From a virus, in UHGV virus genome UHGV-1550212: a stretch of 64,000 nucleotides of DNA; one strand, 5' to 3'. A program made the position numbers and the translations under genes. Position 1 is the stretch's first letter. Each line of letters opens with the position of its first letter. This document shows positions 19,686 through 62,168 of the stretch, in pieces. Under the pieces are notes generated by a model that made no database searches, was not told where the DNA came from, and saw nothing but the letters and a program-made list of their open reading frames with translations.

Positions 19686-20558
19686 TCAAGCCTGACTACT
19701 TTTGTTGATTACGAGATACTTGTATCGTTCTTTGATTGTGATGTTCTTTGATTTTGCAGCCTCGATTTCTTTGCGTTCCTTGGAGGAATAGTTGAACTTG
19801 ATATAGTCGGAGAACAATTCGGGCTTATCTGCTACTTCATTGTTCTTGACTTCTTTTACAAGAGTTTGCTGAAACTCATTGATTGTAGTGAAACCGAGGA
19901 ATGACTGGAACTTGTTAAGCGGAAACAGCTTATCTGTGTTGTCCTCGAATGTCGGGAATTCGTCAGAATACGTAATTTCAATTTGGTCTACAAAATATCT
20001 GAGTTTTTCCCAGGGTTCCTTGCCAATGAGGAGAATGTTCTGATGGTCGAGTTTTTCCTCGAACATTTCCAGGAGACATTCGTATGATTTTACGAGACGA
20101 ACTCCAGGATATGTAATTGATGCAATTGAACGAGGTTTGTGAGTCGTCTTAACTTCTTTATTGTACGTTTCCTCGTCAATGCAATAGATGTATCGCTTAA
20201 CCTTGTCGTATTCTTTAGGAAGATAGTTGTTGTCAAGGAATTGCTTGTCAACTACAATGAAACTGAAAGGATAGAGTTCATTGAATCGTTGGCGAAGCTG
20301 TTCTGTTGCAAGGAAGAAATGCGAGCCATCTTTTGCTGCAAATTCCATATTTGAATTGCATCCTGCATATGCAATGTATCTGTTTCGCTTCCATTTGAGG
20401 AATCGACTTACCAGGTTCTTTTCGAAGATGTCCTTGTATTTGAAGTTAGTGTCCCAGTACTCCTTAACAATTCCATCTTGCATTTTTCTTGACAATTTTG
20501 AATTGTCTACCGGCCTATCAGTAAAAACTGAAGGTTTGTTTGCGTTGTATAATCCCAT
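19686..20558 (-). CDS. hypothetical protein (290 aa) with atypical C-ending codon usage
   Basis: ORF track; TATAAATA late-promoter-like box and conserved leader upstream; codon usage resembles the capsid gene rather than neighbours. Confidence 0.5.
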   Translation of the reverse strand: MGLYNANKPSVFTDRPVDNSKLSRKMQDGIVKEYWDTNFKYKDIFEKNLVSRFLKWKRNRYIAYAGCNSNMEFAAKDGSHFFLATEQLRQRFNELYPFSFIVVDKQFLDNNYLPKEYDKVKRYIYCIDEETYNKEVKTTHKPRSIASITYPGVRLVKSYECLLEMFEEKLDHQNILLIGKEPWEKLRYFVDQIEITYSDEFPTFEDNTDKLFPLNKFQSFLGFTTINEFQQTLVKEVKNNEVADKPELFSDYIKFNYSSKERKEIEAAKSKNITIKERYKYLVINKSSQA

Positions 20559-25482: not shown

Positions 25483-26505
25483 TCATTGTTGTTTATGCCA
25501 GCCATATGATGCCTGACCAGCATCATACACTTCTACGAAGCCATGGTCGTACATAAAATCTTCATTACGAGTGCCCTTGCCCCCATTAGTGCCAAGAATA
25601 CGGTCTGCGCCATGCATAAGCAGCATATTATTTGTGACATGTTGCTTTGTCAGCATATTGAACCAGTGTTTGCTATATGACAAGCCAAGACCATCAAAGC
25701 CCAGCTTTGTGTACACACCACCGTCAAACTTGCTTAAATCACAATATGATAACACAGATTCAGGGTCATATGTCTTGATAAAGTGCTTAAAGATTCGTTC
25801 AGCACCACCAACAACTTTGGTTGCTGCACAAAGACGTAGCAATTCATATTGATAGCGCTTATTGTATCGTGGACGACCAAATGTCATAAGTTGATGAATG
25901 ACATAACCACCAAGCAACTCAAGTGGATGACCTTCAATCAACGCAAGATTGATAAAATTGCCTGAGCACTTGCCTTGCAAATGATGTTCAATCAAAAATT
26001 GATTTGCAGTATACTTGTCAATTTCAACAACTTTAAGCTTGCGAGCATATACAATCTTTGATTTGTCTACGATTTGATGCTTGATGTGATTGATAACTTT
26101 CTTGGCGTCATCCCAGTCCCACACATGAATGCAATGAAAGCCTGCTGATTTGGCGATGTCTGTTTTCTTTGCATGAATATCACAAGGCAAATGCGAATCT
26201 TTTGCATCATGCATAAACAGATGTTCAAATGAATGTGTGCTGTTATGTGAAAATGCAGGATTGATGTTAATGACAATATTGTCATGTCGAAAATCGAAGA
26301 CTTCATCGCCAATGACAAAGTTGCGCTCAAAATTTATACCGACATGTTTGAGTAACACTTGATGCCACACATCTTTATAGGCTGATTCAAGCTTGCTTAG
26401 CTCATCACAGTTTGCAATGTTTTTGTAACGTTGAATAGCAGCATCAAAGTCAAGATTGACTTCAGCGTAGTCTGCATTTTTATCGTAGTGAAATTTTGAG
26501 CTCAT
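25483..26505 (-). CDS. Vsr/DUF559-like nuclease-domain protein (paralog family; N-terminal nuclease module, extra C-terminal domain)
   Basis: NIVININPAFSHNS and GFHCIHVWDWDD match the family module; C-terminal GFVEVYDAGQ tail; ATG at 26505. Confidence 0.5.
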   Translation of the reverse strand: MSSKFHYDKNADYAEVNLDFDAAIQRYKNIANCDELSKLESAYKDVWHQVLLKHVGINFERNFVIGDEVFDFRHDNIVININPAFSHNSTHSFEHLFMHDAKDSHLPCDIHAKKTDIAKSAGFHCIHVWDWDDAKKVINHIKHQIVDKSKIVYARKLKVVEIDKYTANQFLIEHHLQGKCSGNFINLALIEGHPLELLGGYVIHQLMTFGRPRYNKRYQYELLRLCAATKVVGGAERIFKHFIKTYDPESVLSYCDLSKFDGGVYTKLGFDGLGLSYSKHWFNMLTKQHVTNNMLLMHGADRILGTNGGKGTRNEDFMYDHGFVEVYDAGQASYGWHKQQ

Positions 26506-26528
26506 GTGTATAATTTTGTATGAGATTA

Positions 26529-26536
26529 TTGTACAA
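26529..26536 (-). promoter_or_regulatory. TTGTACAA promoter-associated motif
   Basis: about 20 nt upstream of ATG 26505. Confidence 0.4.
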
Positions 26537-26612
26537 CATGCAAATGCATGTTGCATTTGATGCAAAGTACTGCGTACACAACATAAAGTACAAGTTTGTC
26601 TTTTGATAGACT

Positions 26613-27674
26613 TTACTTTGTATTGCTACGCGTCATTGTTAAATGACCGCAATCATACACATCAACTTCTGTTTTGCCAAGCATGCATGTATGACAATTT
26701 ATTTTGAAATCTGCTGCAGCGTAATCAGGATAGTTTAGTGGAGATTCTTTTGACAAATCAATTTCAATTGTGTCAGTAGTTTTAAGCTGTTCAGTACCTG
26801 CAATGATATCTGCAATAAGATTGATAACTTCTTCTTGTGAATCCCAATCAAACACAGTTATGCAACGATAGCCTACATCAAGTGCAAGTTTTGTTTTATT
26901 GTAATGGTATTGCGCACCAATAACATTGTTGTCTTTTGCTCGACCAGTTAAATATGCAAAACTAACAGTGCAGTTGTGCGTAACTGTTGGACAAATTTCT
27001 ATAAGTAACTTTGCAGGCTCATACTGCAAATCATATGTTTGATTATTGATGTTAAACTCGTACTGTGTATCAATTGCCAACTGTCGTAATAACGCATCAT
27101 GCCACATCATATTACATTTAGAAATTGTTTTGGATGACAATCTGCATTGAGGCAATTGACATGGCCAATCTACGCCGTACATTTGTTGTGTTGTTTGACG
27201 CATTTTGTTAACATCACCAAAATGATTGCCATATCGATGCTCTTTGGTTTTAAGCGACTGCTCAATATTGACATTGCCTACACAACCATAACGTTCAAGT
27301 TTTGTTGCAGCAGTTTTGCTAACATCACCATGTCCATTACCAAATTTGGCGACTTTAGTTGCAAGTATTTTATGACTTGGGCCAAATGCATTGCCATACA
27401 ATTCTTGTTTAGTCGCAAGCATTTTGTCGATATTACAACCAGCGCCATAAGTGTTATGCATAGTTTGCATACGCTGTCGAATAAATTTTGGCACAGATAA
27501 AGGACTTTCTACACCATATTTGCGTAAGCAACTGATTTTGCATGCGTACTTTTGCTTGATGACAGAATGTGCATTTCGACGTCCTATGTAAGTATTTTCT
27601 GATGTAGCAGCAAGCTCTGCATCTCTAAGAACTTCAAGTGCAGCAATTCGTGCTTCAATTTCTTCAGATGTCAT
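26613..27674 (-). CDS. RYG-repeat / Vsr-DUF559-like nuclease (putative free-standing homing endonuclease)
   Basis: seven ~21-aa tandem repeats each with R/K-Y-G (KYG, TYG, LYG, KFG, RYG, RYG, MYG); C-terminal LLIEICPTVTHNCT...GYRCITVFDWDS...VDVYDCGH. Confidence 0.55.
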   Translation of the reverse strand: MTSEEIEARIAALEVLRDAELAATSENTYIGRRNAHSVIKQKYACKISCLRKYGVESPLSVPKFIRQRMQTMHNTYGAGCNIDKMLATKQELYGNAFGPSHKILATKVAKFGNGHGDVSKTAATKLERYGCVGNVNIEQSLKTKEHRYGNHFGDVNKMRQTTQQMYGVDWPCQLPQCRLSSKTISKCNMMWHDALLRQLAIDTQYEFNINNQTYDLQYEPAKLLIEICPTVTHNCTVSFAYLTGRAKDNNVIGAQYHYNKTKLALDVGYRCITVFDWDSQEEVINLIADIIAGTEQLKTTDTIEIDLSKESPLNYPDYAAADFKINCHTCMLGKTEVDVYDCGHLTMTRSNTK

Positions 27675-27703: not shown

Positions 27704-27760
27704 CATACAAATGCGTTTTGCATTTTTGATGTAGCAATTGCTTGCACAGTTTGCAAAAAA

Positions 27761-27791
27761 GAACCGCTTGCAATCTAATTGCAAGCGGTTC
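27761..27791 (-). terminator. rho-independent terminator downstream of the major capsid gene region
   Basis: 13-bp stem gaaccgcttgcaa / ttgcaagcggttc, 5-nt loop, followed by T6 on the minus strand. Confidence 0.6.
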
Positions 27792-27840
27792 AATGAATAC
27801 GTTTGTCAGAAACTGTCAATGTGTGCAATCGCTTGAAGAG

Positions 27841-27963
27841 TTAGCTGAACAGCTTGTTGATGCGATTGCTGCATTGGTGACTACCAAGCAGCCCATTGAA
27901 CATTGGATTCGACATCAACGTCTTTGTGGTTGTTGTTGAACTCACCAAGCCAGCAAGTATCAT
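27841..27963 (-). CDS. possible small ORF (40 aa) in capsid-gene 3' region
   Basis: ATG at 27963, TAA at 27841..27843; GC-rich codon usage like the capsid gene; weak. Confidence 0.2.
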   Translation of the reverse strand: MILAGLVSSTTTTKTLMSNPMFNGLLGSHQCSNRINKLFS

Positions 27964-28021
27964 TTAGCAAGTTTCCAAACTTAACGTACTTGTCGTTCCC
28001 CGGCTTGGGTGGCGCAGGTTG

Positions 28022-29737
28022 TCAAATCCAGCCGTAGTCGCTGTGGATAGCGAAGGTGAGATAAGCCAACTCGGGATACATACCCGTCTCCGCGAGAGCG
28101 TAATCCGACTCAATCAGCAACTTAGGTGCTGCTGTACCCTCAGCGGTTAATTCCACACTTGATGCAAGGTCATATGGCATGAATACACATCCCTGGTTGA
28201 CATTCTCTACGTCAACGCCGTCAGCAGTCTTGTTCGTACGAAGAACGAGAACAGTGTTATCGTTCAGCGGCTGCTTAGGATTGCAATAGATTTTAATGCC
28301 AGCCAAGTCACCTGCATAATACAGGTTCTTGTTGTCCTGTACCAGCGTATTGTCAAGAGCTGCAACAAAGTTCTTCTGAGCCTTAATTGCAACCAAGGCA
28401 ATCGTATTGACCACAGCAGCATCACCAGCACCGAAACGCGACAGGTTGCCAATGATTGTCGAAGCAGCCAGGATACGAGTTGCGATACGAGCCTGACGGG
28501 TAATCTGGTTCTCAGCCGAGCTGTTCGATTCAGCGTTAGGAACCATGCCGAACTCAGCCGTGCGGTCTACACCCATCTTGTCAACGAATGCAGGAGCCTG
28601 GAATTCCGAGAATGCCTTGGCAGTCGAACCAGCGTAGCCAATGTACAAGTTCAGGTTGTAGCCCTGAGCAGCCAACAGCTGAGCATGTGTCGTAACACCA
28701 AGTGCACGCATGCGCTTCAGACCATTGTCGTTGATTGACTGCGTGATTTCATTCTGCATTGCATTCTTGATGATTGCAACTGCATCCAAACCGCGAGCAC
28801 GGAGGTCCTTAACCTGGCGACGAGTCAGAGCACCCCAAGTCTGGTACGTCTTAACTTCGATAGCCTTTGAGAAGGTGCGGAGCTCCAGCATGTTCGGGTT
28901 GCCAGCCTCAGCCTCAGAACGAGACATTGGATTGCCGTCAAGGTCATCCATTGCAGCGAAGCCGTGGATGTGTTCGTCACCAGCCGAAACCAGGTCGAAC
29001 ATAACCTCAGTCATGCCAGTCAGCATGTCAGTTACAGCACCTGTAGCGTCAACCGAGTAGATTTTCGATGCAGCCATTGCAACATCAGCCAACGACTTGT
29101 CAGGAGCAACAGTCATTGCGCCACCAGCGCCAACGGTATATACGCCTTCATTGCGAACTACGAGGTAGCCTGCAACACGCGATACCTGTACGAACGTTAC
29201 CTTGGCAGCAAGCTCACCAGCAGCTGAACCGCCGATGTACAGAACTTGACCCTTCTTGAGGCCATGAACCATTGTCTGCGAAGCAACATTGTACAACTCC
29301 TTCCACTTGATGAGGAAGTAGCGAGGACCCTTGGCTGCGTTCAACTTGCCACCACCATACACGTAGTCTACATAGTCCAGCTGAACCAGCGGGCTGTATA
29401 CAGGAATGGCCGGGAGCAGGTCGAACAGAATCGTGTTGGCTGCGATGTTCATGTTCAGAGCCAGAACATTGGCAGCTACATCGATTGAACCACGCTTACG
29501 CGACGGGTCATGGAACTGTGCTTGCGTACCTGGGTCAGCAGGGAAAGCGACCGGACCTACGCCATTGAGATTCTGCGAATACGTCGACTCAAACGACTCG
29601 TTCATATACTGAACGTTCTGAGCGATTGATGCGAGCAGATACTTCTTAGCGGGCGAAAGCTTGGAGTCAAACGACTCATCAAGAACAGGGCCCCACTTTT
29701 TCAGCAATGCATCAATCTGTGTACGTTTTGCGTTCAT
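28022..29737 (-). CDS. major capsid protein (T4 gp23-like)
   Basis: N-terminus MNAKRTQIDALLKKWGPVLDE parallels the gp23 N-terminal pattern; 571 aa; markedly GC-rich C-ending codon usage; followed by a strong terminator. Confidence 0.7.
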   Translation of the reverse strand: MNAKRTQIDALLKKWGPVLDESFDSKLSPAKKYLLASIAQNVQYMNESFESTYSQNLNGVGPVAFPADPGTQAQFHDPSRKRGSIDVAANVLALNMNIAANTILFDLLPAIPVYSPLVQLDYVDYVYGGGKLNAAKGPRYFLIKWKELYNVASQTMVHGLKKGQVLYIGGSAAGELAAKVTFVQVSRVAGYLVVRNEGVYTVGAGGAMTVAPDKSLADVAMAASKIYSVDATGAVTDMLTGMTEVMFDLVSAGDEHIHGFAAMDDLDGNPMSRSEAEAGNPNMLELRTFSKAIEVKTYQTWGALTRRQVKDLRARGLDAVAIIKNAMQNEITQSINDNGLKRMRALGVTTHAQLLAAQGYNLNLYIGYAGSTAKAFSEFQAPAFVDKMGVDRTAEFGMVPNAESNSSAENQITRQARIATRILAASTIIGNLSRFGAGDAAVVNTIALVAIKAQKNFVAALDNTLVQDNKNLYYAGDLAGIKIYCNPKQPLNDNTVLVLRTNKTADGVDVENVNQGCVFMPYDLASSVELTAEGTAAPKLLIESDYALAETGMYPELAYLTFAIHSDYGWI

Positions 29738-29825
29738 GATTGAATTTGTTTGTTATTGAAAGTGAAACATATATTTCTGTATAATATGTATAGAACTACT
29801 GACATTGATTGAATTGTGAAAATGG

Positions 29826-31217
29826 TCATTTTTCAATCTTTTTGAGCAATGCATGACCACAATCATAGACTTCGACGAAGCCTGACGCAATCATTTGTTG
29901 CCTATCAAACCCATTGTCAAGTAGATGTTCCCATGTCTTTGTATTGTGCCAATGCAATTGAATTGATGATTTATCTGTACTAAGCTGCGGATTTTTTGAA
30001 AAGTCTGCACAGTCAATTTTGTCACCGTTAAGATGCTTACGAATGCATTCAATGACAGTGTCGTGGTCATCCCAGTCCCATATTGTTATGCATACATAGC
30101 CATGTTGTAATGCAATTTGTGTCTTGTCAAAATGACTATCATGTCTCTTTGGCCTATTACGCTTTGTGCGCTTAGTAATATATGCATATGAGTATGTTGA
30201 GTTATGCGAAAATGTTGGATTCACTTCAATCAACAATTTGCAATGTTCATTTTCATAATGCAAGTCATATGAAAAGCCAAGTAGCTTAACATCGTCATAA
30301 CTGCAATCAATGTTAAGCTCTTGTTGCAACTTATCATGCCAAAATTGATTTGGCTTAGATATTATGTTGCCTTGACTGTTTATGCAGTTAGAAGTCATAC
30401 ATGACCATGGCACGCCATAACGCTCAATGTTTGTTTTGTTTGCACTTGCTTGAATTTTTGACAATGGGCCCCATGGATGACCATACTTTGCACGCTTGAC
30501 ATCTGCACCACGTTTAGCAACTTCACGATAATCGCCATAACGCTCTTTTCTTGTAGCAAGCATTTTTGCAATATTGCCCGCGCCACGAGAGCCATATCTA
30601 AGCTCTTTAGTCTTTTGAGCTTTGGCGTAATCACCACAAAATGCATTGCCATATCGAGCAATTTTTGTTGCTTTCATTTTTTCAATGTTGCCTGCACCAG
30701 CATTGCCATAACGTTCAAGTTTTGTTTGCTTGGACAATTCAACATTGCCAAATTTGTTGCCATAACGCACTAATTTTGTTTCTTGTGAACGTTGACGTAT
30801 TTCTTGCACTTGTGCACAGTATTCTACGCCATAGCGTTTTAACATTGTTATTCGTTGATTATATGCACGTTTAATAGGTGCATGCGATGTTCGTTTTGGC
30901 CCATATTTAACAAACTCAGTAGATGCAAGTAATTCATCACGCTCACGTTCAAGTTCTGCAATTCGTTGTTGTATATGGACATCATACACAGGCTGCTCAG
31001 AAATGTCATCAATAGCTGTCGTTTCTAATTTAGCAAGTTTGCGTTTAAGAGCTTTTGTTGTTTGCGTGCAGCTCATTTTTATCAATGCATGTGCATGTCT
31101 GCCACAGTCAAGTACAATGTTAGGCTCATTTGCAAGGCGTTCATCACGTTTACATTCTGCAGCATGTATTGCATCAATAAGTTGTCGTCTCTTTACATTA
31201 TATTCGTCTTGTGTCAT
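29826..31217 (-). CDS. RYG-repeat / Vsr-DUF559-like nuclease (putative homing endonuclease)
   Basis: tandem repeats (KRYG, VRYG, ERYG, ARYG, LRYG, ERYG, AKYG, ERYG); C-terminal FSYDLHY...LLIEVNPTFSHNS...GYVCITIWDWDD...FVEVYDCGH. Confidence 0.55.
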   Translation of the reverse strand: MTQDEYNVKRRQLIDAIHAAECKRDERLANEPNIVLDCGRHAHALIKMSCTQTTKALKRKLAKLETTAIDDISEQPVYDVHIQQRIAELERERDELLASTEFVKYGPKRTSHAPIKRAYNQRITMLKRYGVEYCAQVQEIRQRSQETKLVRYGNKFGNVELSKQTKLERYGNAGAGNIEKMKATKIARYGNAFCGDYAKAQKTKELRYGSRGAGNIAKMLATRKERYGDYREVAKRGADVKRAKYGHPWGPLSKIQASANKTNIERYGVPWSCMTSNCINSQGNIISKPNQFWHDKLQQELNIDCSYDDVKLLGFSYDLHYENEHCKLLIEVNPTFSHNSTYSYAYITKRTKRNRPKRHDSHFDKTQIALQHGYVCITIWDWDDHDTVIECIRKHLNGDKIDCADFSKNPQLSTDKSSIQLHWHNTKTWEHLLDNGFDRQQMIASGFVEVYDCGHALLKKIEK

Positions 31218-31333: not shown

Positions 31334-31909
31334 TTAGAACTGAGAACCGACAACTCGTGGCACTGCAAGTTCGCTCGTAAGAGTAACTTGGCAAGTGTAA
31401 ATGTCGTCACTATTCTTGTCATGTGAATCAACTGCGCTGATAGGACCCTTAGGGAATCCATTCTTGTACGACGTTACTCTCCAGGCTGTTCCAACCTGAT
31501 TATTTTCAACGAGAATCCAAGAACCTACATAGTTCTTCTTGAGACCCATGGCTCCCGTGAGAGGATTCCTGCGTTTAGCATTCCAACTTTGGAAAGCATT
31601 GTAAATCACAGGGTCATTGGTGTCTGGTCCATGCAAGTTCAGATTCATTGTGATAGTCAGGTTATGAATGTTGCTGACTGTCAATGCTGAGAACTGACGA
31701 GACTGATTTTGTGCAACTTTTTGTGAAACCACATCAGGCGCATTGTCAAGTGTGCCCAAACCTGAAATTGACTGAATTTGCTCATCAATTGTATCTGGAA
31801 TCACAACGCCTGTAGGTGGCATAAGTGTGAGCTCGAACAATGAACTGAACACGGGTTCAGCATATTCGGCAGTCACTTCGCTGTTTTTGATATGCGGTAA
31901 CTTCGGCAT
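31334..31909 (-). CDS. tail tube protein (gp19-like)
   Basis: 191 aa downstream of sheath gene; N-terminal LFELTLMPPTG and C-terminal IYTCQVTLTSELAV parallel gp19 patterns. Confidence 0.5.
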   Translation of the reverse strand: MPKLPHIKNSEVTAEYAEPVFSSLFELTLMPPTGVVIPDTIDEQIQSISGLGTLDNAPDVVSQKVAQNQSRQFSALTVSNIHNLTITMNLNLHGPDTNDPVIYNAFQSWNAKRRNPLTGAMGLKKNYVGSWILVENNQVGTAWRVTSYKNGFPKGPISAVDSHDKNSDDIYTCQVTLTSELAVPRVVGSQF

Positions 31910-31950
31910 GATTGTAATGTGTTATTAAATTGTTCTTGTTTTGTTATGCG

Positions 31951-32646
31951 TCATCGTACAGTGAATGAATTATCGTCATCTTCTGTAGTAGTTGGGTCAT
32001 CAATTACATCGTGGCCAATACCTGACATGGGCTCTGGCTCAGGTTCCGGTTCAGGTTCCGGTTCAGGTTCCGGTTCAGGCTCCGGTTCAGGTTCCGGTTC
32101 AGGTTCCGGTTCAGGTTCCGGTTCCGGTTCCGGTTCAGGTTCCGGTTCAGGTTCCGGCTTGGGCTTTGATGAATAGTTAAACATCTTGTGAATCCATTTG
32201 CACCACCATTTGTGACATGCATGTGCGCCATCATGATAATACGCTTGCAGCTCCATTGGAATTGCATGATATGCTTTGTCATGTGACATACCTTTGAATA
32301 TTCGCAAGTACACATAGCACAAGCAATATGCAATGTAGTACATAAGCGGTGATGCAAGCAGCCACCACCAGCTAAGCACATTGCATGCTGCAAGCACAAT
32401 AAGTACAAGCAACGTCGCAAGTGTTACAAAGATGAATTGCTTTGCATGCACAGCTTCATGCTTCAAGGTCTCAGAGTATCTGCTAAGTGTGTCATCATAT
32501 GACTTATCACTTCTTATGAAGCACATTGCACACAACGACATTGCATAATAATGTGAAAATGGAATGCATGGCTGGTCGATGACAAGCATTGGTCCAGCAA
32601 ACCACAGTCGCCACTGAGATTTATTTGGCAGTGTTGCAGTTTTCAT
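31951..32646 (-). CDS. membrane protein with HExxH motif and long (Pro-Glu)n repeat
   Basis: HEAVH motif next to two hydrophobic helices, then about 25 PE dipeptides and an acidic tail. Confidence 0.5.
32029..32160 (-). repeat. hexanucleotide tandem repeat (ggttcc/ggttca)n encoding (Pro-Glu)n
   Basis: about 22 near-perfect 6-bp units with a 12-bp super-period. Confidence 0.9.
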
Positions 32647-32709
32647 AAATGATGTTTATTGTTTGATGATGAAGACTGAAGAGCCGAAGCTCTTCAGTCT
32701 GTCAATTTG

Positions 32710-35547
32710 CTACTCAGCAGATGCACCTTGCAGTGACAATGTTGTACGATGTACGCCAATTCGAATGCCTTGAGCATTGATGATTTCAGTGTCAAGTACA
32801 ATGAATCCGCGAGCAATCGTTTCATCATCATTGTTGCTGCTATCGCAGACATTCGTGTACGAAACTGCGCCACCGGCTGCAACGATGCCATCCATGAAGT
32901 TGTCTGCTTTTGTTTTGACCTGCAAACGAACATTTGCAGTGTTTCGTTTGTACTGAGCAGACTTCAGATATGGCTCAATGTTGTCAGCGACATAGATGAG
33001 CAACTCAAGATTTTCAATGTAGCTGAATGCGCTGGTGTAAGCTACTTGTGCAGAACGAGATGTCAGCATTGTGATGACGCCTTGGTCTGAACGAGCGAGC
33101 ATGTTCCAACCTGCAGGTTCAAGGTCATCCATATCAGACCCTTCACCTTGCGAGACAATCATGTCAATGTCGGTTACACCAACACCAGACAGTGGCCACT
33201 CATCACCAGCAACGACGTCAAAGACATGCTTGCCTGCTTCTGTATGCTTTCTCATGAAGACATTCGACAAGATACCTGTTGCAGGAATCGTCATATCATC
33301 AATGCCATCATTGTAGCGAACATTGGCTACATATGTGATGAACGGTGCGCCATCAGTTTGACCTGCGAAGCTGAACAACTTGCTGTATGGTTTATCGGTG
33401 TTACCACCTGCAGCACAGTACTTAGACTCAATTGGGTCACCTGCATTGTCCTTAAAGTACGGGTCAGTTGAGCGGAACAAGTCATACTTGGTTGGCAGAG
33501 CAGAGAATGCGATTGCACGTTTTGAATCATTGCAAATCTTTGCAAACTCGTACTTTTGATTTGCTGCAATGTATGTCTTGAATGGGTCAACTACATAACG
33601 CCATTGACATTGATTGTGGTCCATCAAGCTACGATAAACGCCGCCTGAAATGAGAGCTTGCAGTACTTCTGTCTGACGTGCAGATGTGCCATCAACAAAT
33701 TGAGTTGCACGAAGAGCTACACCATGTAGATATGCGCCCTTGAAGAACTTAACTTGGTCAACAAGCTTCGTCAATGACCAAACAGACGCCTGCGAGGCGT
33801 ACTTCATCATTGAGCCATCTGCAAGTTCAAATTCGCCTTCAGCACCTGCAGCTTTGTATGCCAATGCACCAGTGAATTGATATTCAATCAGCACTTTGTT
33901 TTCTGCAAATGCGTCGTAGACATTCTTCTTCTCAAGCGGCGACAAATCAGCTTCAGTGATTGTGATTGGCATACCGCCATACTTGAGTGGCTTGTCTAAT
34001 GGCAGGCCATTTGAATCATATTCAACAAGGTCACCGCCATATGAAATTGTCTCACCTGCAGCTCTTGCTTTACGAGCTTTCGTTGATGAAGTTTCTGCAT
34101 CTGCAGACTCTTCGCCGCCAATTATGACTGTTGAGCCTTGTGGATAGATGAAGTTGCCCTTTGCATCCTGAGGGAATGCTACCTTTGCACCTGATTCGTT
34201 AGTGTACATTGGAATGCCGCCTTCCTTGCCAATGACAGGAACTGCGCGATATTCAGCTACAACTGCGCGACTTGTACAACGTACTGGCGAGCCATCTGCA
34301 CCAATAAAGATGTCGCCAAGCGAAATTGGCAACACTGGTGCAACAAATGAAGTCTTTGAAGCTTCACCTGGCTGCACAAATGGAACCATCACATTAACAA
34401 ACTCAGATGACACGAAGTCCTTGAGCTGTTCTTTTGTGATTGCGACATCTGTTGCTGTTGGCGTGCAGTCAATCTTTTCAGGATTGATGTCAGTTGACGG
34501 ACGAGCCATGCCAAGATATTGATGCGTAGCATCATCAGCAAACAGTGGACCTGCAGCGTCATCTACAGAAATGTAGTTCGAACCAAAGATGTCCACTGCA
34601 CGTTGGAAACGAGCATCTTCGATATCATTCGAATTGTAGAACTCGTCAACCTTGTCAGGGTCAATCTTACACATGATACCCGTCGTGTCTGACACTGCAT
34701 TCACAGCAGTTTCCAATGACAACTTGTTACCATTGATATCAAGCAAGTCAGGAATCAATGAGCCAGATACACGACCCATGTAGCCAGATGCAGCAAGCTT
34801 TGACAATGCCTCAGGACCATACATGCCATCAACTTGTGCACGGATACCATCCTTTGTGAAGTACTTGCCATATACAGTCGAACCTGCAAGTGACTCATAG
34901 TTCGTCAGCTTTTCAGAGAAGAACCAAACGTCAACCATATAGTCTGACACAAGGTCATTGCAATTCACGCCAGGCACATACATTGATGGGAAGCGGTCTT
35001 GAACTGACTTGATATCATAATCATAGCCAGTCAATGTCGTCGGCGTAATGAAGATTGTTGCAGACTTGTTTGTAAGTGTTGAGAAGTTGAGCAGTTGTAC
35101 AGGGTCAGTGCCAACTGCATTGAGCAGATTCAATGGCTCAGCTTTCCAGAAGTTTGATGTATCATAGACATCCTTAAATGGAACGTCTACAGGCGAGCCA
35201 TCTTCTCCTGAGCTGTTTGCAGCAAAAGTCACTCGTGACAACACATCGCTATCATTGAATGAGCGCAAGTTCAACACAAGAATTGGGCTTGTTGCAAGCA
35301 TTTGCTCTGCAATGAGACCAGCGAAACAGCCGGCACGCTCCAAACGCTTGTCACGTTGACCGAAAATTTCATGCAGCTGGTCTGCATCTTCAACAAGCGC
35401 GGCGCGATTGACCGGACCGTTCTTCCACTGGCCAGGCAGCAATCGAAGTGTTTGAGCGGGCAGTGAGTCAAGGCGACTTGCGTCAATGAACAGACGATAT
35501 GTCCCGACTGACTTGAACCGTTCAAATAAAGAAGTGTTATTTGCCAT
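32710..35547 (-). CDS. contractile tail sheath protein (gp18-like)
   Basis: N-terminal pattern PGQWKNGPVNRAALVEDADQLHEIFGQR parallels the gp18 W-GP...FG motif; large protein immediately upstream of tube gene; ATG at 35547. Confidence 0.65.
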   Translation of the reverse strand: MANNTSLFERFKSVGTYRLFIDASRLDSLPAQTLRLLPGQWKNGPVNRAALVEDADQLHEIFGQRDKRLERAGCFAGLIAEQMLATSPILVLNLRSFNDSDVLSRVTFAANSSGEDGSPVDVPFKDVYDTSNFWKAEPLNLLNAVGTDPVQLLNFSTLTNKSATIFITPTTLTGYDYDIKSVQDRFPSMYVPGVNCNDLVSDYMVDVWFFSEKLTNYESLAGSTVYGKYFTKDGIRAQVDGMYGPEALSKLAASGYMGRVSGSLIPDLLDINGNKLSLETAVNAVSDTTGIMCKIDPDKVDEFYNSNDIEDARFQRAVDIFGSNYISVDDAAGPLFADDATHQYLGMARPSTDINPEKIDCTPTATDVAITKEQLKDFVSSEFVNVMVPFVQPGEASKTSFVAPVLPISLGDIFIGADGSPVRCTSRAVVAEYRAVPVIGKEGGIPMYTNESGAKVAFPQDAKGNFIYPQGSTVIIGGEESADAETSSTKARKARAAGETISYGGDLVEYDSNGLPLDKPLKYGGMPITITEADLSPLEKKNVYDAFAENKVLIEYQFTGALAYKAAGAEGEFELADGSMMKYASQASVWSLTKLVDQVKFFKGAYLHGVALRATQFVDGTSARQTEVLQALISGGVYRSLMDHNQCQWRYVVDPFKTYIAANQKYEFAKICNDSKRAIAFSALPTKYDLFRSTDPYFKDNAGDPIESKYCAAGGNTDKPYSKLFSFAGQTDGAPFITYVANVRYNDGIDDMTIPATGILSNVFMRKHTEAGKHVFDVVAGDEWPLSGVGVTDIDMIVSQGEGSDMDDLEPAGWNMLARSDQGVITMLTSRSAQVAYTSAFSYIENLELLIYVADNIEPYLKSAQYKRNTANVRLQVKTKADNFMDGIVAAGGAVSYTNVCDSSNNDDETIARGFIVLDTEIINAQGIRIGVHRTTLSLQGASAE

Positions 35548-35653
35548 GTTCGTTATCGTATTTGTTGTAAATTGTGAAATGTTGCTTTGTTTGATTATAA
35601 CTTGATATATGTATGTATATGATGACATCAAACATGTTGTTGACCAAAATCAA

Positions 35654-35704: not shown

Positions 35705-38700
35705 TTAGCCACGAATCAAGTCAACCAAGCGTTGCTGTTCAGGAGTCAATGAAGACTTTCCGCTGCCATCAATGTTTTCGTTAACGAAACCGACTGGCTG
35801 CTTAGTCGAATATGACTTGATTGCAGCCCAGTTACGTGAACGATAGAATGCTGCGACATCTGACTCATTTACGAAAGTGCGAACTGCTGCCTGAGTAGCA
35901 ATCAATGACTTCTGTTCAGGAGTCAAGCTTTCATAAATGTACTTGTATGCTGTTGGCATATGCTTCAGATACAATGGTGTATGGTCAATTGGCTGCAGGT
36001 TCTCATCCAAGACTGCTACACCAGCAGCATCATAGCGAGTTGCAAGCTGCTTTGTTTGACGACGCAATGCAGCAATTTCATGCTTGATGCTTGTCAAGCA
36101 TTCATCAGTTGCTTGTGCGCCAAGATATGTGCGAAGCATATCAGACAGCATCTTCTGATTTGCATCGGTCAAATCACCTGCAACTTCAATGCCAGTCAGC
36201 TGGCCATCTTTGCTGATGACTACAGAAATTGTAGAACCGTCGCGTTCAACTGTGCGGAAGTCAAAGTCATCGTATGACTTATCCTTAAGGACAGCTTCAC
36301 GAATATTGTCATCTACGCCTTCATTGACCATGCTCATGCATTCCTCAACATCTACGTCAAGTCCAAGCTCTTCTGCAGTTTCAGCAATCTTTTCTGCAAG
36401 CTGAGCTTTATTCTCAACTTTGTCAAGGTCTGCTGCATCTGATACAGCATCGACAAGTTCATCTGCCTGTGCACGAGTAATCGTTGAAGCATCAACAAGG
36501 CCATCAATGATTTGCTCTACATCTGCAGGTGTCGGCTTGTTGTCTTCTGCTGCTTCATTGATAAACTTGGCAGTCTTTGGCTTGTAGCTAAGCTTGCCCT
36601 CATTGACCATCTCATCCTGCAATTGTGCAGCGATGTATGCAATTAGCAATGACTTGTTGGCTTCAAGTTCATCGACTGCTTCAGCAGACTTTTGAGCTTT
36701 GATGAGTTCATCGTAAGCTGCTGCAACTTTGTCATCCATCGTAGACTTGTCAGGGTCAATGTTTTTGATGCATGTCTTGACAATATCATCCTGATAGAAC
36801 TTGTCAATGATTGATTTGTCTGTGTCAGAGTATGTTGCATATAACTTGTCTGCGACAATTGATTCATTGACAATCTTGCCTGGCTCAGATGCAGGAACAA
36901 GAGTCCACTTACCATCAACTTCTGCAACAATGCCTGAAGTCGATTCGCCATAAGTGACTGTTAGACGAGTGCCTGCTTCATTGTTGTCAATTGTGTTGAC
37001 GACTGCTTCGAATTCATTACCATCAGCGTCATAGATTTTGATGCTGTCACCGACAGCAGCTTCATCTACTGGTGCTTCGAAGAACTCTTTGACAAAGTTC
37101 TGAACATCAACGGGCAGACTGTCATATGGCTGTGATGCATAGTACTCTGAGTCAGCATCAAGGTAATTCTTTGAAAGCAGCCAAGCTTTTCGAGTAGCAA
37201 CATCTGCAGCATTCCAAGCATCGACTGACTCATCGCAGTCATCGACAAGTGCAAGATACTCATGGTCTTTCTTGTCATCAAAACGAAGAGTAATCTTTTG
37301 TTCGGGCTTGCCAGCAGGCCAAACTTCGACTTCAATTTCTGTAGTGCCTGCAACATTTTTGACTGTGCCTACAACAATCTTGTCGCCTTTGTTGATGCCA
37401 TTAGACATGTCGTATGGTGCTTCAATAGATTCATCTGTCGACTGAGCTCGAATTGCTGCAGCAATAGCATTACGAGATTCATTGTCGAACATCTCCCATG
37501 TAGCATTCGCAGCATCTTCTACACCAATCTTGTCTTTGCCAACCTGCTCAATCAACTGATTGCGGTCAGCTACTGAAGCATTGTACCACCAGTCTGCAGC
37601 AGTGTCAGATGCTTCATTGACAAATGCATTGAGCAATGCAGTCTGAACGTTATCAGGCAACTTGTCAAAGTCAACAAGCTCTACGTCATCTGCAATATTT
37701 GCTTGCTTTGCTGTTGCTTTACGGCCATCTGCATCAGACTTATTCCAGTCATCAATGAATGCCTGTTCAGCAGCAGATTCATCAAGCGCTTTGACAGTTT
37801 CATATCGACCGTCATACAGCATGTACTTATCGCCTTCTTTGATGGCTACAGACTCCTTGCCATTGTACTTGAATGACACTTTGTCACCATTGAAGCCGGT
37901 CAATTCAGCTGTGATTTTATCGCCATTCTTGTCATACACTTCAACTGTCTGCTCTTCATCAATGTTCAAGTGCTTCTTGAGTGCATCTACAAGTTCTTTG
38001 CCAAGAGCGTCTTCATTGTCATGGGCTTGCTGGAAGCAATCTTCATCTGACTTGTCAGGCTGAACAGCTTTCAATGCTGTTGCCCGATTAAGCATTGACA
38101 TCGTGCCCCAGATTGACATGAAGCTTTTGCCCTCATTGTCTTGTGCTTCGGCTTCGTCAATTGCATCAATGTCTTTCTCAAGCATTGCATGATGAGCAAT
38201 GTCGATGCCAGACCATTTCGTCTTTGCATTATATGGCAAACCAATATGCTTCGACAAAATTGACTGACGTTGGTCATCTGTGAATGAATCCCAAGCTTCG
38301 CCAAGTGTTGCATGCTTTGCTTCATCAGCAGCAAATTCTGTTTCAATCTTAAGTTTGTGGTCCTTGTCAATCAGTTGCCACTTGGCATTTGGACGATAGA
38401 ACTCAGACAATGACAGCTTGTCAAGAATGACTTTGCGTTCGTCATCTGACAATTCGTCCCACTTGTTGTCAGCAGATTCATCGATGTTGACGAGTTCTTT
38501 CTCAATGAGATTCTTGTCAAGCATTGCATCAATGATTGGCTGCTGGGCTTCTGCTGGAATGTCTTTGAACGACTTAATTGCAATGACAGCGTCTTTGTCA
38601 TCAACTTTAGCAGCTTCAACAATTTCTGTCTTCACTTCATCAGTCAAAGCGCCCCAAGCAGCATCGAGATAATCAAAGTTGAGAGCTTCATCACATTCAA

Positions 38701-39820
38701 CAATGCCATACTGCTTTGCAATGTCATTGTGCTTGTCAAGATTGCTGTTGAGTTCAGCTTCAATTGCTGCTTTGATGTCATCAATTGACTTATCTTCAAC
38801 TTCAAGCTCAAGAGCTTTTGCAAGTTCAGTCAATGCTGCATCATCAAGCTTGCTAATGTCATAAGGCTTAGCATCTTCATTTGTGAAGTCAATGCCAAGC
38901 AAAGACATTGCTTGCTTCTTGTTTTCTTCTGAGAGTGCATCGAATGCAGTTGCAAGACCGACATCGGTGTAGTCGCACCCAACTTCGTCAAGTAATGCTT
39001 CGACTTTCTGGATGTTTTCTACGCCAACTTCGTTAGCATCAGCATTGTTGTATGCCTCAACAAAACGTGATTGGTTTGTCATGGTAGTGAAATCTTCTAT
39101 TGATTCGTTTATGAGTTGCTGTTTGAGTGCATCCAATGATGCTGAGCCAATCAATGCATCAGGGAATAGCTTCTGCAACATACCTGTACGTGCAAGCTCA
39201 ATCAATTGGAGCATCAATGAGTTTGGCGAGTCTTCGTCATCTACAGATTCACAAATGAGAGTGTCTTTTGATTCATTAACTGAACCGACAAGATTGAACT
39301 CTGCATTCGAAAAGCCTGGCTGTGCAACCAAATCAAATGTCACGATTTTGAGAAGCTGAACTCTGCCAGTAGTTGGATTGACTACGCCAAGGGCGCGACT
39401 TGAAATGAACAATGGCGAACCTGCTGTAACAATTGCCCATGCAATGCGACCTGCAGGCGTATCAAGAATTGTAATGTAGCCTTCAAAACGTCGTTTTTCA
39501 GGATTCCATTCAATACTGTCCAATCTGTGGCTTACGTTTCCATAACGTACAGTACGTCGCTTAACATGTTCAAGTTCGCCAAGAAGTCGCTTTGCTTTAA
39601 TTGCAGGTTGCAATGCCTGTACTTGAGCAAAGTAATTCTCAAAGTCATACGTGCGCCCATTTTCGTTTTTCTGGTCCATGTATGCATACACGCCAAAAAG
39701 ACGACCAAGTGCGCCGCTTGGCACATGAGAATCTTCTGCTTCAACTACAAACTGACAATCTGCGCGGCTTTCAAGCATAAGTGAGGCTTCCCTGCCTTTG
39801 TACTTATATGACTTTGCCAT
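35705..39820 (-). CDS. prohead protease-like N-terminal domain fused to ~1200-aa acidic scaffold-like region
   Basis: N-terminal ~190 aa with GELEHVKRR and LFISSRALGVV (gp21-like His/Ser context); remainder highly acidic with nine aliphatic-N-E motifs; ATG at 39820. Confidence 0.5.
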   Translation of the reverse strand: MAKSYKYKGREASLMLESRADCQFVVEAEDSHVPSGALGRLFGVYAYMDQKNENGRTYDFENYFAQVQALQPAIKAKRLLGELEHVKRRTVRYGNVSHRLDSIEWNPEKRRFEGYITILDTPAGRIAWAIVTAGSPLFISSRALGVVNPTTGRVQLLKIVTFDLVAQPGFSNAEFNLVGSVNESKDTLICESVDDEDSPNSLMLQLIELARTGMLQKLFPDALIGSASLDALKQQLINESIEDFTTMTNQSRFVEAYNNADANEVGVENIQKVEALLDEVGCDYTDVGLATAFDALSEENKKQAMSLLGIDFTNEDAKPYDISKLDDAALTELAKALELEVEDKSIDDIKAAIEAELNSNLDKHNDIAKQYGIVECDEALNFDYLDAAWGALTDEVKTEIVEAAKVDDKDAVIAIKSFKDIPAEAQQPIIDAMLDKNLIEKELVNIDESADNKWDELSDDERKVILDKLSLSEFYRPNAKWQLIDKDHKLKIETEFAADEAKHATLGEAWDSFTDDQRQSILSKHIGLPYNAKTKWSGIDIAHHAMLEKDIDAIDEAEAQDNEGKSFMSIWGTMSMLNRATALKAVQPDKSDEDCFQQAHDNEDALGKELVDALKKHLNIDEEQTVEVYDKNGDKITAELTGFNGDKVSFKYNGKESVAIKEGDKYMLYDGRYETVKALDESAAEQAFIDDWNKSDADGRKATAKQANIADDVELVDFDKLPDNVQTALLNAFVNEASDTAADWWYNASVADRNQLIEQVGKDKIGVEDAANATWEMFDNESRNAIAAAIRAQSTDESIEAPYDMSNGINKGDKIVVGTVKNVAGTTEIEVEVWPAGKPEQKITLRFDDKKDHEYLALVDDCDESVDAWNAADVATRKAWLLSKNYLDADSEYYASQPYDSLPVDVQNFVKEFFEAPVDEAAVGDSIKIYDADGNEFEAVVNTIDNNEAGTRLTVTYGESTSGIVAEVDGKWTLVPASEPGKIVNESIVADKLYATYSDTDKSIIDKFYQDDIVKTCIKNIDPDKSTMDDKVAAAYDELIKAQKSAEAVDELEANKSLLIAYIAAQLQDEMVNEGKLSYKPKTAKFINEAAEDNKPTPADVEQIIDGLVDASTITRAQADELVDAVSDAADLDKVENKAQLAEKIAETAEELGLDVDVEECMSMVNEGVDDNIREAVLKDKSYDDFDFRTVERDGSTISVVISKDGQLTGIEVAGDLTDANQKMLSDMLRTYLGAQATDECLTSIKHEIAALRRQTKQLATRYDAAGVAVLDENLQPIDHTPLYLKHMPTAYKYIYESLTPEQKSLIATQAAVRTFVNESDVAAFYRSRNWAAIKSYSTKQPVGFVNENIDGSGKSSLTPEQQRLVDLIRG

Positions 39821-39953
39821 ATTTGAATTGTGTTTGAAAGTTTGCAAATTTTTGTTGTTATTGATTATATATGCAAGGCAGACTTGTGTGTTGAAAAATT
39901 GCAAAATTTCAGTTATGTGTACATAACAAAACCATCCAAATCAATTCAATTAT

Positions 39954-61931: not shown

Positions 61932-62168
61932 TTATTCGAAATCCGTGTCATCTGCATTTTCATTAGGGTCATAGATAAGCCATACAAATGCTGCACAGCC
62001 AAGTATGAATAAGCCTCCGCCAATGATTGTCGTAAAAACCGAACCAATCCAATGCTTCATAATATCACCGAGCGGATTCAATGTTTCATAGCCAATCATA
62101 AATGCGACAAATACAACTATTATTGCTGCTATTGCTTTGTTTGTGGTATTTCGTTTTATTGTTGCCAT
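61932..62168 (-). CDS. small membrane protein (78 aa, two predicted TM helices)
   Basis: ATG at 62168 preceded by conserved leader aacctctactaca; hydrophobic segments AIAAIIVVFVAFMIGY and VFTTIIGGGLFILGCAAFVWLI. Confidence 0.4.
   Translation of the reverse strand: MATIKRNTTNKAIAAIIVVFVAFMIGYETLNPLGDIMKHWIGSVFTTIIGGGLFILGCAAFVWLIYDPNENADDTDFE

Follow-up and report, generated by a model that had tools for sequence, protein, structure and literature searches.

Codon-class-specific bias in the predicted gp23-type major capsid gene of an uncultivated human-gut phage

In T4-like phages, free-standing homing endonuclease genes (seg, mob) sit between conserved genes. Bias towards host-preferred codons is established for phage head and tail genes and has been explained by translational selection on abundant virion proteins (Lucks, Nelson, Kudla & Plotkin 2008, PLoS Comput Biol; PMC2266997). 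Highly expressed prokaryotic genes show a C bias in two- and three-fold codon families and a U bias in four-fold families, and G-ending Lys, Glu and Gln codons are favoured in the presence of C34 tRNAs (Lopez et al. 2020, mBio; PMC7374057). Here we examine a capsid gene with strongly divergent codon usage in an uncultivated phage from the human gut that has a ~176-kb genome with 41% GC. The window, that is, the whole stretch of DNA analyzed, comprises 64,000 nt of this genome.

The capsid gene and its neighbors

On the basis of sequence comparison, the open reading frame (ORF) at 28022..29737 is identified as encoding a gp23-type major capsid protein. It matched the profile PF07068 with 41.2 bits (cut-off 24.4), covering residues 100-554, and phrog_138 'major head protein' with E = 4.6e-15. 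Its product shares 33-37% identity over 98-100% of the length with annotated capsids of three cultured phages, namely Chryseobacterium phage MA9V-2 ('major capsid protein'), Sphingomonas phage PAU (gp156, 'major capsid') and Tenacibaculum phage PTm1 ('major capsid protein'). A megablast search of deposited phages returned no near-identical record, the relatives being distant and recognizable at the protein level only. Scanning the capsid protein against species-representative genomes gave no match and, hence, no MAG-binned copy hinting at the host, and a literature search on the phage group and its host yielded nothing specific. The gene lies among the following features:

25483..26565, minus strand: second downstream homing-endonuclease-like paralogue (360 aa; phrog_3339, E = 2e-41; phrog_559 'HNH endonuclease')
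26613..27674, minus strand: homing-endonuclease-like paralogue (353 aa), directly downstream of the capsid terminator; GC3 0.258
28022..29737, minus strand: predicted major capsid protein gene (gp23/T4 type, 571 aa); GC3 0.55, A3 0.12, Nc 39.9
29826..31217, minus strand: homing-endonuclease-like gene (463 aa, DUF7487 repeats, phrog_3339), directly upstream of the capsid gene; GC3 0.281
31334..35631, minus strand: block of tail sheath (32710..35631), Pro-Glu-repeat membrane protein and tube-like protein (31334..31909)
35705..39904: prohead protease gene (giant fusion, ~1400 aa)
41168..42961: portal gene

The order DNA end protector, portal, prohead protease and capsid of the T4 gp23-type block is the same as in MA9V-2 and the sister lineages of our phage, and portal, protease, capsid and DUF5856 genes keep their order across the clade. 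Unlike in other gp23-type blocks, the protease is a ~1400-aa fusion, and in the lineage of the window the sheath/tube block lies between protease and capsid, a position that it does not have in the sister lineages. Like seg and mob genes, the endonuclease-like genes occupy gaps beside a conserved capsid gene and vary among near-identical strains: in strains whose capsid proteins are ~98-99% identical, the site of 29826..31217 is occupied by another gene (612 aa), and genes of 340-447 aa are found in other strains at the site of 26613..27674. In MA9V-2, too, the capsid gene is directly followed by a gene for an 'endonuclease-like protein'. Unlike seg and mob genes, the putative endonucleases of the window appear to belong to a different family, characterized by DUF7487 repeats; a PDB sequence search with one of these proteins produced chance-level matches only.

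Codon usage of the capsid gene, its relatives and candidate hosts

The initial annotation had described the capsid gene as visibly richer in G/C-ending codons than the flanking genes. This was confirmed by GC3 values of 0.550 for the capsid gene versus 0.258 and 0.281 for its neighbors, and the C-terminal codons quoted as an example are correct (the ORF ends GCT ATC CAC AGC GAC TAC GGC TGG ATT TGA). The visual contrast was sharpened because the flanks are AT-rich homing-endonuclease-like genes, with GC3 values near the bottom of the window range (lowest 0.258). In a per-gene calculation across the window, the capsid gene deviated from all 57 other ORFs, which range from 0.26 to 0.45. Restricted to synonymous families, its GC3 is 0.532 against a mean of 0.329 (sd 0.046; z = 4.4), and z = 4.8 was obtained in comparison with ORFs of >= 300 aa. 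When synonymous codons were redrawn for the capsid's own protein sequence from genome-wide usage (5,000 draws), GC3 was 0.362 +/- 0.018 and never exceeded 0.427. The observed value lies far outside these redraws (z = 10.3; excess over expectation, +0.19) and amino-acid content is, therefore, no explanation. The Nc of 39.9 compares with 60.3 predicted from the gene's GC3. Elsewhere in the phage genome, codon usage is strongly biased as well, in favor of A-ending codons (Nc ~43).

The shift is codon-class-specific and not a general GC enrichment. C-ending codons make up 0.65 of two-fold pyrimidine codons (versus 0.37) and G-ending codons 0.83 of those for Glu, Lys and Gln (versus 0.37). For Ala, Val and Gly, T3 goes up (0.56 versus 0.29) and GC3 goes down (0.20 versus 0.33), with GTC and GTG together falling from 0.43 to 0.14 and GTA being kept. 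G replaces A in Ser, Thr, Leu and Pro codons, with fractions of 0.56 for TCG and 0.36 for ACG, while CGT/CGC are preferred for Arg and the C-ending codon for Ile; AGA, CGA and ATA do not occur. A-ending codons are shunned in almost every family (A3 0.12 versus ~0.35), and GC3 rises to 0.55 because most preferred codons end in G or C. Composition boundaries around the gene are sharp, and three genome-typical A-ending kinds remain among the first 13 codons (AAA, GCA and ACA; five occurrences).

We compared synonymous codon fractions of the capsid gene to those of five genes of candidate hosts, tuf and rplK/A/J/L, using one genome or MAG per genus. Correlations were r = 0.84 with a Prevotella MAG and r = 0.79-0.82 with two Bacteroidaceae MAGs, versus r = 0.26-0.36 for the rest of the phage and r = 0.42-0.54 for the sheath gene with the same sets, the GC3 of which is 0.49-0.52. 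Six candidate hosts gave nearly equal likelihoods for the capsid codons and no single one fits every codon family: TCG and ACG are matched only by the Alistipes set, whereas GCT and GTT are in better agreement with Prevotella and Bacteroidaceae. Upstream of genes, the Bacteroides-type promoter motif TAnnTTTG was not enriched and, thus, provided no host evidence, and no tRNA genes were found in the window.

Capsid-like bias forms a gradient that may follow expression level, as judged from protein role. The capsid gene ranks well above the gene for a 290-aa protein, followed by those for the sheath, a DUF5856 protein, the tube-like protein and the protease; replication genes lie below these and the endonuclease-like genes are lowest. 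The capsid gene is far ahead of the genes that follow it in this ranking, the codon shift of the sheath and tube-like protein being weaker and in the same direction.

Five sister lineages with 74-76% capsid identity and 35-42% genome GC were included in the comparison. In all five, the capsid gene exceeds its neighbors in GC3 and has a lower A3 than any of them, with GC3 values of 0.36-0.40 versus ~0.29, 0.475 versus ~0.35 and 0.553 versus ~0.40, and its codon shifts correlate with those in the window (r = 0.54-0.75). The excess was also seen in lineage L003, in which the capsid gene is not adjoined by endonuclease genes. Each lineage features its own capsid codon set that retains AAA and GAA, unlike the AAG/GAG of the window, and three of these capsids are best matched by Phocaeicola or Parabacteroides (r = 0.74-0.84). 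Such AAA/GAA retention and differing best hosts would be predicted for lineages that each follow a host of their own. No capsid GC3 excess is present in the distant cultured relatives MA9V-2, PAU and pT24; the PAU gene shows A3 depletion and T3 gain without GC3 gain.

Leader, 3' segment and terminator

Around the capsid gene, the following noncoding and candidate coding features were considered:

27755..27791, minus strand: predicted intrinsic terminator (14-bp stem GAACCGCTTGCAAT/ATTGCAAGCGGTTC, 3-nt loop, then T run)
27792..28021, minus strand: lineage-specific 230-nt segment from the capsid stop (TGA) to the terminator; GC 0.45, strongly conserved
27793..27939, plus strand: candidate small antisense ORF with core QSLEELAEQLVDAIAALVTTKQPIEHWIRHQRLCGCC; peptide includes QSLEELAEQLVDAIAALVTTK
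27841..27963, minus strand: 40-aa ORF in the +1 frame relative to the capsid gene; no family match
29738..29825, minus strand: capsid upstream region; GC 0.25, no Shine-Dalgarno-like motif, one variable site in 88 nt among strain haplotypes

The leader contains ATATTATACAGAA, which is also present upstream of one other gene. At the opposite end, the predicted terminator closes the capsid transcription unit, and strain similarity collapses just beyond it. The intervening 230-nt segment has six variable sites versus ~27 expected at the capsid third-codon-position rate and a GC content of 0.452 versus an intergenic mean of 0.352 (sd 0.057; z ~1.75). The initial annotation had suggested that the capsid bias extends into this 3' region, which applies to GC content but not to codon choice. 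None of the reading frames in the segment scored as capsid-like, their values being typical of non-coding frames in GC-richer sequence, and a continuation of the codon bias past the stop was rejected. The GC-richer composition of this untranslated region is not explained by tRNA selection. As for the 40-aa ORF flagged there as a possible gene, the open frame exists but nothing supports gene status; with two strain substitutions, one of them non-synonymous, and no capsid-like codon bias, it is probably not a gene.

Haplotypes of the candidate antisense ORF differ by a 1-nt indel, for which an alternative ATG compensates. Two further variable sites, located within the core or where it begins, are synonymous, and a fourth variant carries an in-frame 3-nt indel. 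Among 5.8 billion proteins, only two near-identical fragments were detected. The capsid TGA-C stop is followed by 46 in-frame codons (candidate read-through frame, peptide including QPAPPKPGNDKYVK), which prompted a comparison with coat-protein read-through of the Q-beta A1 type. TGA-C is a common stop context in the window (10 of 24 TGA stops), and the candidate extension is absent from the sister lineages, has a codon score between genes and non-coding frames and contains one codon varying as D/N/I among strains. Recoding of stop codons was rejected, as stops comprise 24 TGA, 22 TAA and 12 TAG and standard-code ORFs account for 91% of the window. Three candidate peptides of the 3' segment had no PHROG match. 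The segment itself was found in a single IMG/VR contig, with no further copy in the window, where Rfam searches also gave no match. Without the terminator, it folds slightly better than shuffled sequences (z = -1.8 sense, -2.0 antisense). Structured RNA was not demonstrated, the z of -4.1 with the terminator included coming mostly from the hairpin.

Origin of the bias and comparison with known systems

The bias is very probably the result of translational selection for host-adapted codons in a very highly expressed gene. Of all genes of the phage, this one would be the most heavily translated and under selection for fast and accurate translation, so that the A- and T-ending codons usual in the genome would have been replaced by those that the host decodes best. 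The preferred set comprises C-ending codons of two-fold pyrimidine families and Ile, read by G34 tRNAs, along with G-ending Lys, Glu and Gln codons, CGT/CGC for Arg, T-ending Ala, Val and Gly codons, and TCG, ACG and CTG for Ser, Thr and Leu, respectively. We infer that no other product is as abundant as the capsid protein, that selection acts through tRNA supply and that the host is one of the gut Bacteroidales with a preference for AAG and GAG in highly expressed genes. The initial annotation had offered translational selection for host tRNAs as one of two explanations, and it is well supported by the codon-class-specific shift, the match to tuf and ribosomal-protein genes of gut Bacteroidales, the recurrence in every sister lineage and the weaker bias of other abundant virion proteins. 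An extended version, which we regard as unlikely, treats the capsid transcript as a self-contained cassette written in its own 'codon dialect' for host G34/C34 tRNAs, with the conserved 230-nt 3' element as a functional part. The other ~250 genes may then use another pool, for example, phage U34 tRNAs encoded outside the window, and the element may stabilize the mRNA, contain a small antisense ORF or extend the capsid protein by UGA read-through.

The other explanation offered initially was horizontal acquisition of the capsid module. Import of the capsid gene or module from a higher-GC phage, with a composition not yet drifted to that of the recipient, is unsupported. Sharp compositional boundaries, strain-variable mobile homing-endonuclease-like genes on both sides and a sheath/tube block between protease and capsid, indicating that the region was rearranged, would agree with it. 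However, lower GC3 in Ala, Val and Gly with depleted GTC and GTG is no uniform GC shift, the leader is AT-rich and the first 13 codons include genome-typical A-ending ones. All sister lineages show the capsid excess, including some without adjoining endonuclease genes, and the order portal, protease, capsid and DUF5856 is conserved. Capsid and portal identity matrices reveal the same star-like relationships (a coarse comparison of identities, not full trees), capsid, DNA polymerase and portal share the same nearest cultured phages, and strain dS is ordinary (0.11-0.13 for the capsid gene versus 0.08-0.38 for neighbors). The contrast of capsid and replication-gene relationships suggested at the outset, carried out by identities, showed congruent nearest relatives and no sign of capsid import, an origin that is largely refuted and extremely improbable. 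Repeated repair of double-strand breaks made by the flanking homing endonucleases might also have raised local GC by GC-biased gene conversion. Three endonuclease-like genes surround the capsid gene and vary in content among strains with nearly identical capsid genes, clustered strain differences inside the gene suggest recombination tracts and the 3' segment adjoining an endonuclease gene is GC-richer. This process is disfavored, and we assign it next to no probability: G/C-ending codons are not favored in Ala, Val and Gly, the 5' intergenic region adjoining the upstream endonuclease gene has a GC content of 0.25, L003 exhibits the excess with no adjoining endonuclease genes and no other genes are as AT-rich as those for the endonucleases.

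Selection might alternatively act on the mRNA, with a GC-richer, A-poor transcript being more stable or evading a host or phage RNase specific for A-rich RNA and the codon pattern arising as a by-product. Avoidance of A-ending codons in almost every family (A3 0.12 versus ~0.35), the GC-richer conserved untranslated segment (0.45 versus 0.35 intergenic) and the A3 drop without GC3 rise in the PAU capsid gene are in line with this scenario. It nevertheless seems very unlikely, since family-specific swaps (T-ending codons for Ala, Val, Gly and Arg, C-ending ones in two-fold families, GTA kept) fit tRNA rules and no simple base-composition rule, the codon-by-codon match is to host tuf and ribosomal-protein genes, sister-lineage capsid genes retain AAA and GAA, and the 5' leader is very AT-rich.

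When a phage capsid gene forms a striking GC3 island, translational optimization and not foreign DNA should be the first reading. The two can be told apart through GC3 by codon family, randomization on the amino acids of the protein and a look at sister lineages. On its own, the capsid gene provides a far clearer host signal than the genome average. The different capsid codon sets of the lineages (AAG/GAG versus AAA/GAA) fit different gut Bacteroidales and could sharpen host prediction for gut phages. Follow-up studies could address the conserved 3' element and the endonuclease-like genes, which vary around a capsid gene that hardly does.

The codon island represents an ordinary, already known phenomenon, of which this gene is a clear example. 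As in the phages of the earlier survey (PMC2266997), a structural gene stands out in GC3 and host-preferred codons. Unlike those cases, the phage is an uncultivated ~176-kb gut phage with an inferred host, the large effect (GC3 +0.19) is almost all in one gene and sister lineages carry different capsid codon sets. All three rules described for highly expressed prokaryotic genes (PMC7374057) are obeyed, that is, the C bias, the U bias in Ala, Val, Gly and Arg, and G-ending Lys, Glu and Gln codons, and the AAG/GAG versus AAA/GAA difference between lineages parallels the Bacteroides vulgatus exception reported there. Unlike under those rules, Ser, Thr and Leu in the capsid gene prefer the G-ending TCG, ACG and CTG to U-ending codons, which suggests a host-specific tRNA supply.

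The capsid gene and its third codon positions

The window has 41% GC, and standard-code ORFs, nearly all on the minus strand, extend over 91% of it. Mechanical calling of the longest ORFs yielded 58, among them replication genes (topoisomerase II, ribonucleotide reductase and a family-B DNA polymerase in two ORFs) and structural genes (DNA end protector, portal, a giant prohead protease of ~1,400 aa, tail sheath, tube-like protein and major capsid protein). Exact or near-exact copies of the capsid protein occur on contigs of 175–181 kb that, by their sample labels and record names (one of them ‘gut.metagenome’), come from human gut metagenomes; the element is therefore a large uncultivated gut phage. 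A Shine-Dalgarno-like 4-mer was found upstream of 1 of the 58 ORFs, with A-rich sequence before most starts; the near-absence of such motifs presumably fits a Bacteroidota host. No tRNA genes were detected in the 64-kb window. The two polymerase ORFs (53138–54430 and 56724–58229, minus) are separated by ~2.3 kb that holds four small ORFs, and the polymerase of Chryseobacterium phage MA9V-2 is likewise split, into ‘DNA polymerase II’ and ‘DNA polymerase family B’.

Features in and around the capsid region:
28022..29737, minus: major capsid protein gene, gp23-type, 571 aa, PF07068 above the curated cut-off
29826..31217, minus: homing-endonuclease-like paralogue upstream of the capsid gene, 463 aa
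26613..27674, minus: homing-endonuclease-like paralogue downstream of the capsid gene, 353 aa
25483..26565, minus: homing-endonuclease-like paralogue bracketing the capsid gene
42982..44220, minus: fourth homing-endonuclease-like paralogue
27791..27761, minus: intrinsic terminator, 14-bp stem then T run, 230 nt past the capsid stop

The capsid protein is 33–37% identical to annotated capsids of Chryseobacterium phages MA9V-1/2, Sphingomonas phage PAU and Tenacibaculum phages. The initial annotation, which quoted the C-terminal codons correctly, had described its gene as visibly richer in G- or C-ending codons than AT-ending neighbors. This observation is real and statistically strong: GC3 is 0.550 against 0.26–0.45 in the other 57 ORFs and, on the basis of synonymous families only, 0.532 against 0.329 ± 0.046 (z = 4.4, or 4.8 versus long ORFs). 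The adjoining genes, at 0.258 and 0.281, lie near the bottom of the window’s range. The contrast looks so sharp because three endonuclease-like genes, which are among the least optimized in the window (C bias 0.24–0.32), surround the capsid gene. When synonymous codons were redrawn 5,000 times for the capsid amino acid sequence from genome-wide codon usage, GC3 came to 0.362 ± 0.018 (maximum 0.427). The observed value lies at z = 10.3, and the excess therefore does not come from Ala/Gly richness of the protein.

Codon set and candidate hosts

The capsid shift is not a general G+C enrichment, as its direction depends on the codon family.

Codon fractions in the capsid gene and in the rest of the genome:
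Two-fold pyrimidine families and Ile, C-ending: capsid 0.65, rest 0.37
Lys, Glu and Gln, G-ending: capsid 0.83, rest 0.37
Ser, Thr, Pro and Leu, G-ending: capsid 0.51, rest 0.22
Ala, Val and Gly, T-ending: capsid 0.56, rest 0.29
Ala, Val and Gly, GC3: capsid 0.20, rest 0.33
Val, GTC + GTG: capsid 0.14, rest 0.43
Arg, CGT + CGC: capsid all 20 codons, rest 0.49

A-ending codons are shunned in nearly all families (A3 0.12 versus ~0.35 elsewhere), and the capsid ORF contains no AGA, CGA or ATA. Of its first 13 codons, three are still genome-typical A-ending ones (AAA, GCA and ACA; five occurrences), and the 5′ leader has a GC content of 0.25. Non-capsid genes are themselves strongly biased (Nc ~42–46 versus 53–58 expected from GC3), preferring GCA, ACA, TCA, CCA, GAA, CAA and GGC; with an Nc of 39.9, the capsid gene therefore represents a second, different and strongly biased codon set. 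Its shift matches what has been reported for highly expressed prokaryotic genes: C is favored in two- and three-fold families, U in four-fold families, and G at the end of Lys, Glu and Gln codons where C34 tRNAs exist (PMC7374057).

For host comparison, an approximate EF-Tu query (92% identical to a Phocaeicola tuf) recovered genuine tuf loci in 80 species genomes. For nine Bacteroidales, tuf and the downstream rplK, rplA, rplJ and rplL were pooled (~1,070 codons each), so that one genome and five genes stand for each candidate.

Correlation (r) of synonymous codon fractions between phage and host gene sets:
Capsid gene: Prevotella MAG 0.84; two Bacteroidaceae MAGs 0.79–0.82
Tail sheath: Prevotella MAG 0.54; two Bacteroidaceae MAGs 0.42–0.48
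Rest of phage: Prevotella MAG 0.36; two Bacteroidaceae MAGs 0.26–0.31

GC3 of the Prevotella and Bacteroidaceae sets (0.49–0.52; tuf alone 0.53–0.56) is close to the capsid value of 0.55. Likelihoods were nearly equal for Prevotella, three Bacteroides or Bacteroidaceae sets, Alistipes and Muribaculaceae, and the codon likelihoods of these six sets do not fix the host genus. Capsid TCG (0.56) and ACG (0.36) are matched by the Alistipes set only, while GCT and GTT fit the Prevotella and Bacteroidaceae sets better. Contig CAVFVD010000036.1, labeled uncultured Oscillospiraceae, carried a tuf gene 84% identical to the Bacteroidales-type EF-Tu query and with Bacteroidales-like codon usage; this contig may be mis-binned in its MAG.

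Separately, exact copies of AACCTCTACTACA were observed directly 5′ of an ATG at three positions (13750–13765, 20556–20571 and 62166–62181, minus), each behind an AT-rich TATA-like stretch, with ~0.5 matches expected by chance even when three mismatches are allowed. One copy heads a 290-aa gene (19686..20558), the second most codon-optimized and the most conserved in its region (99.7% amino acid identity between strains); one falls within ORF 61932..62303 as called mechanically, implying a later true start. The element may act as a leader or promoter signal for strongly expressed genes.

Flanking genes and the 3′ segment

The four endonuclease-like paralogues contain DUF7487 ‘RYG’ repeats, match phrog_3339 and phrog_559 and share a conserved C-terminal core (...NPTFSHNST...GYxCITVWDWD...) followed by a GFVEVYDCGH tail; a PDB sequence search with one of these proteins returned nothing above chance level. 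Which paralogue occupies which position varies between strains (L001 and L011–L018) with ~98–99% identical capsid proteins, the upstream gene encoding 463, 612 or 438 aa and the downstream gene 353, 447 or 340–344 aa. Strains are again similar in nucleotide sequence from ~60 nt before the upstream gene ends, and this similarity stops just past the capsid terminator. An ‘endonuclease-like protein’ also directly follows the capsid gene in MA9V-2.

In sister lineages, a terminator-like hairpin follows directly after the capsid stop, with an AT-rich spacer (GC 0.23–0.35); the 230-nt segment at 27792–28021 is therefore a lineage-specific insert. The proposal that the capsid bias reaches into this 3′ region holds, modestly, for GC content (0.452 versus 0.352 ± 0.057 in other intergenic regions) and fails for codon usage, since codon scoring found no capsid-like usage in any of three candidate frames (−0.06 to −0.28 per codon; capsid +0.35, its non-coding frames −0.07 to −0.25). 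Strain differences in the initially suggested 40-aa ORF, which has no family match, comprise one non-synonymous and one synonymous change. A 46-codon in-frame extension past the capsid TGA-C shows D/N/I variation at one codon. The antisense ORF 27793..27939 stays open across a 1-nt indel by use of a different ATG, with all changes synonymous, and retrieved only two near-identical fragments from the protein database. Across 11 strain sequences in three haplotype groups, the segment contains six variable sites against ~27 expected at the capsid third-position rate (68/571; binomial P = 3e-7), a roughly fivefold lower variability than at synonymous sites of the capsid gene; it is therefore constrained or was recently homogenized. 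The 88-nt 5′ spacer has one variable site (P = 2e-4). Folding of the 3′ segment was only marginally better than that of shuffled sequence.

Sister lineages and the origin of the bias

Capsid homologues of 74–76% identity were found in at least three further lineages (L003/L004/L006, L007 and L009; genome GC 35–42%), each with a capsid gene that exceeds its 9–16 neighboring genes in GC3 and ranks below all of them in A3.

GC3 of capsid genes and their neighbors in sister lineages:
L003: capsid 0.359, neighbors ~0.29
L004: capsid 0.395, neighbors ~0.29
L006: capsid 0.355, neighbors ~0.29
L007: capsid 0.475, neighbors ~0.35
L009: capsid 0.553, neighbors ~0.40

The window’s capsid-versus-rest codon shifts are correlated with the ones seen in L003 and L004 (r = 0.54–0.75), and AAA and GAA are retained in all sister capsid genes examined. 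The Phocaeicola set, which prefers GAA (GAG fraction 0.06), was the best fit for L007 (r = 0.84), L004 (0.79) and L003 (0.74). The simplest reading is that the capsid gene of each lineage adapted in situ to the host of that lineage. No capsid GC3 excess is seen in MA9V-2, PAU or pT24, which are distant cultured relatives; in PAU, the gene is depleted in A3 and has gained T3.

Gene content near the capsid also differs. Sheath, Pro-Glu-repeat and tube-like genes (31334–35631) separate prohead protease and capsid in the window’s lineage, while L003, L004, L006, L007, L009 and MA9V-2 have no sheath or tube genes there (at most one small unrelated ORF), and the module has therefore moved. The Pro-Glu run, within a predicted membrane protein (ORF 31951–32646, minus), is encoded by ~10 copies of a 12-nt tandem repeat (32039–32157). 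Orthologues measure 231, 239, 245 or 259 aa by strain and are interrupted in some assemblies, which makes hypervariability of the repeat probable.

The initial annotation had offered host tRNA selection or horizontal acquisition of the capsid module as explanations. Acquisition, by import from a GC-richer donor, is not supported. It conflicts with the family-specific direction of the bias, and phylogenetic congruence, as judged by identity matrices and hit rankings, points the same way: capsid, DNA polymerase and portal share the same order of nearest cultured relatives (MA9V, then PAU or Tenacibaculum phages, then the huge-phage record LR756500), and the capsid and portal matrices show the same near-star relationships among lineages, in which L009 stands furthest apart and the L003 group pairs slightly more closely with L007. 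MA9V-2 and the gut lineages alike keep the order end protector, portal, protease, capsid and DUF5856 protein, and between-strain dS of the capsid gene (0.11–0.13) falls within that of neighboring genes (0.08–0.38). Equally disfavored is GC-biased gene conversion through the flanking endonucleases, as GC3 falls in Ala, Val and Gly of the capsid gene, its 5′ spacer is AT-rich and L003 shows the capsid excess without adjoining endonuclease genes.

Translational selection for host tRNAs, in contrast, is well supported by the family-specific shift, the correlation with host tuf/rpl sets (r = 0.79–0.84) and the capsid excess in sister lineages. Selection on what is presumably the most abundant virion protein very probably sets its codon usage, in an AT-leaning phage with a likely host whose highly expressed genes prefer many G- or C-ending codons. 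Further study may be worthwhile for the capsid codon sets, apparently host-specific, of the sister lineages, for the endonuclease genes flanking the capsid, which vary by strain, and for the conserved 3′ element. Translational selection on an abundant virion protein is a well-known explanation (PMC2266997), and the capsid bias is a clear example of this already known phenomenon.
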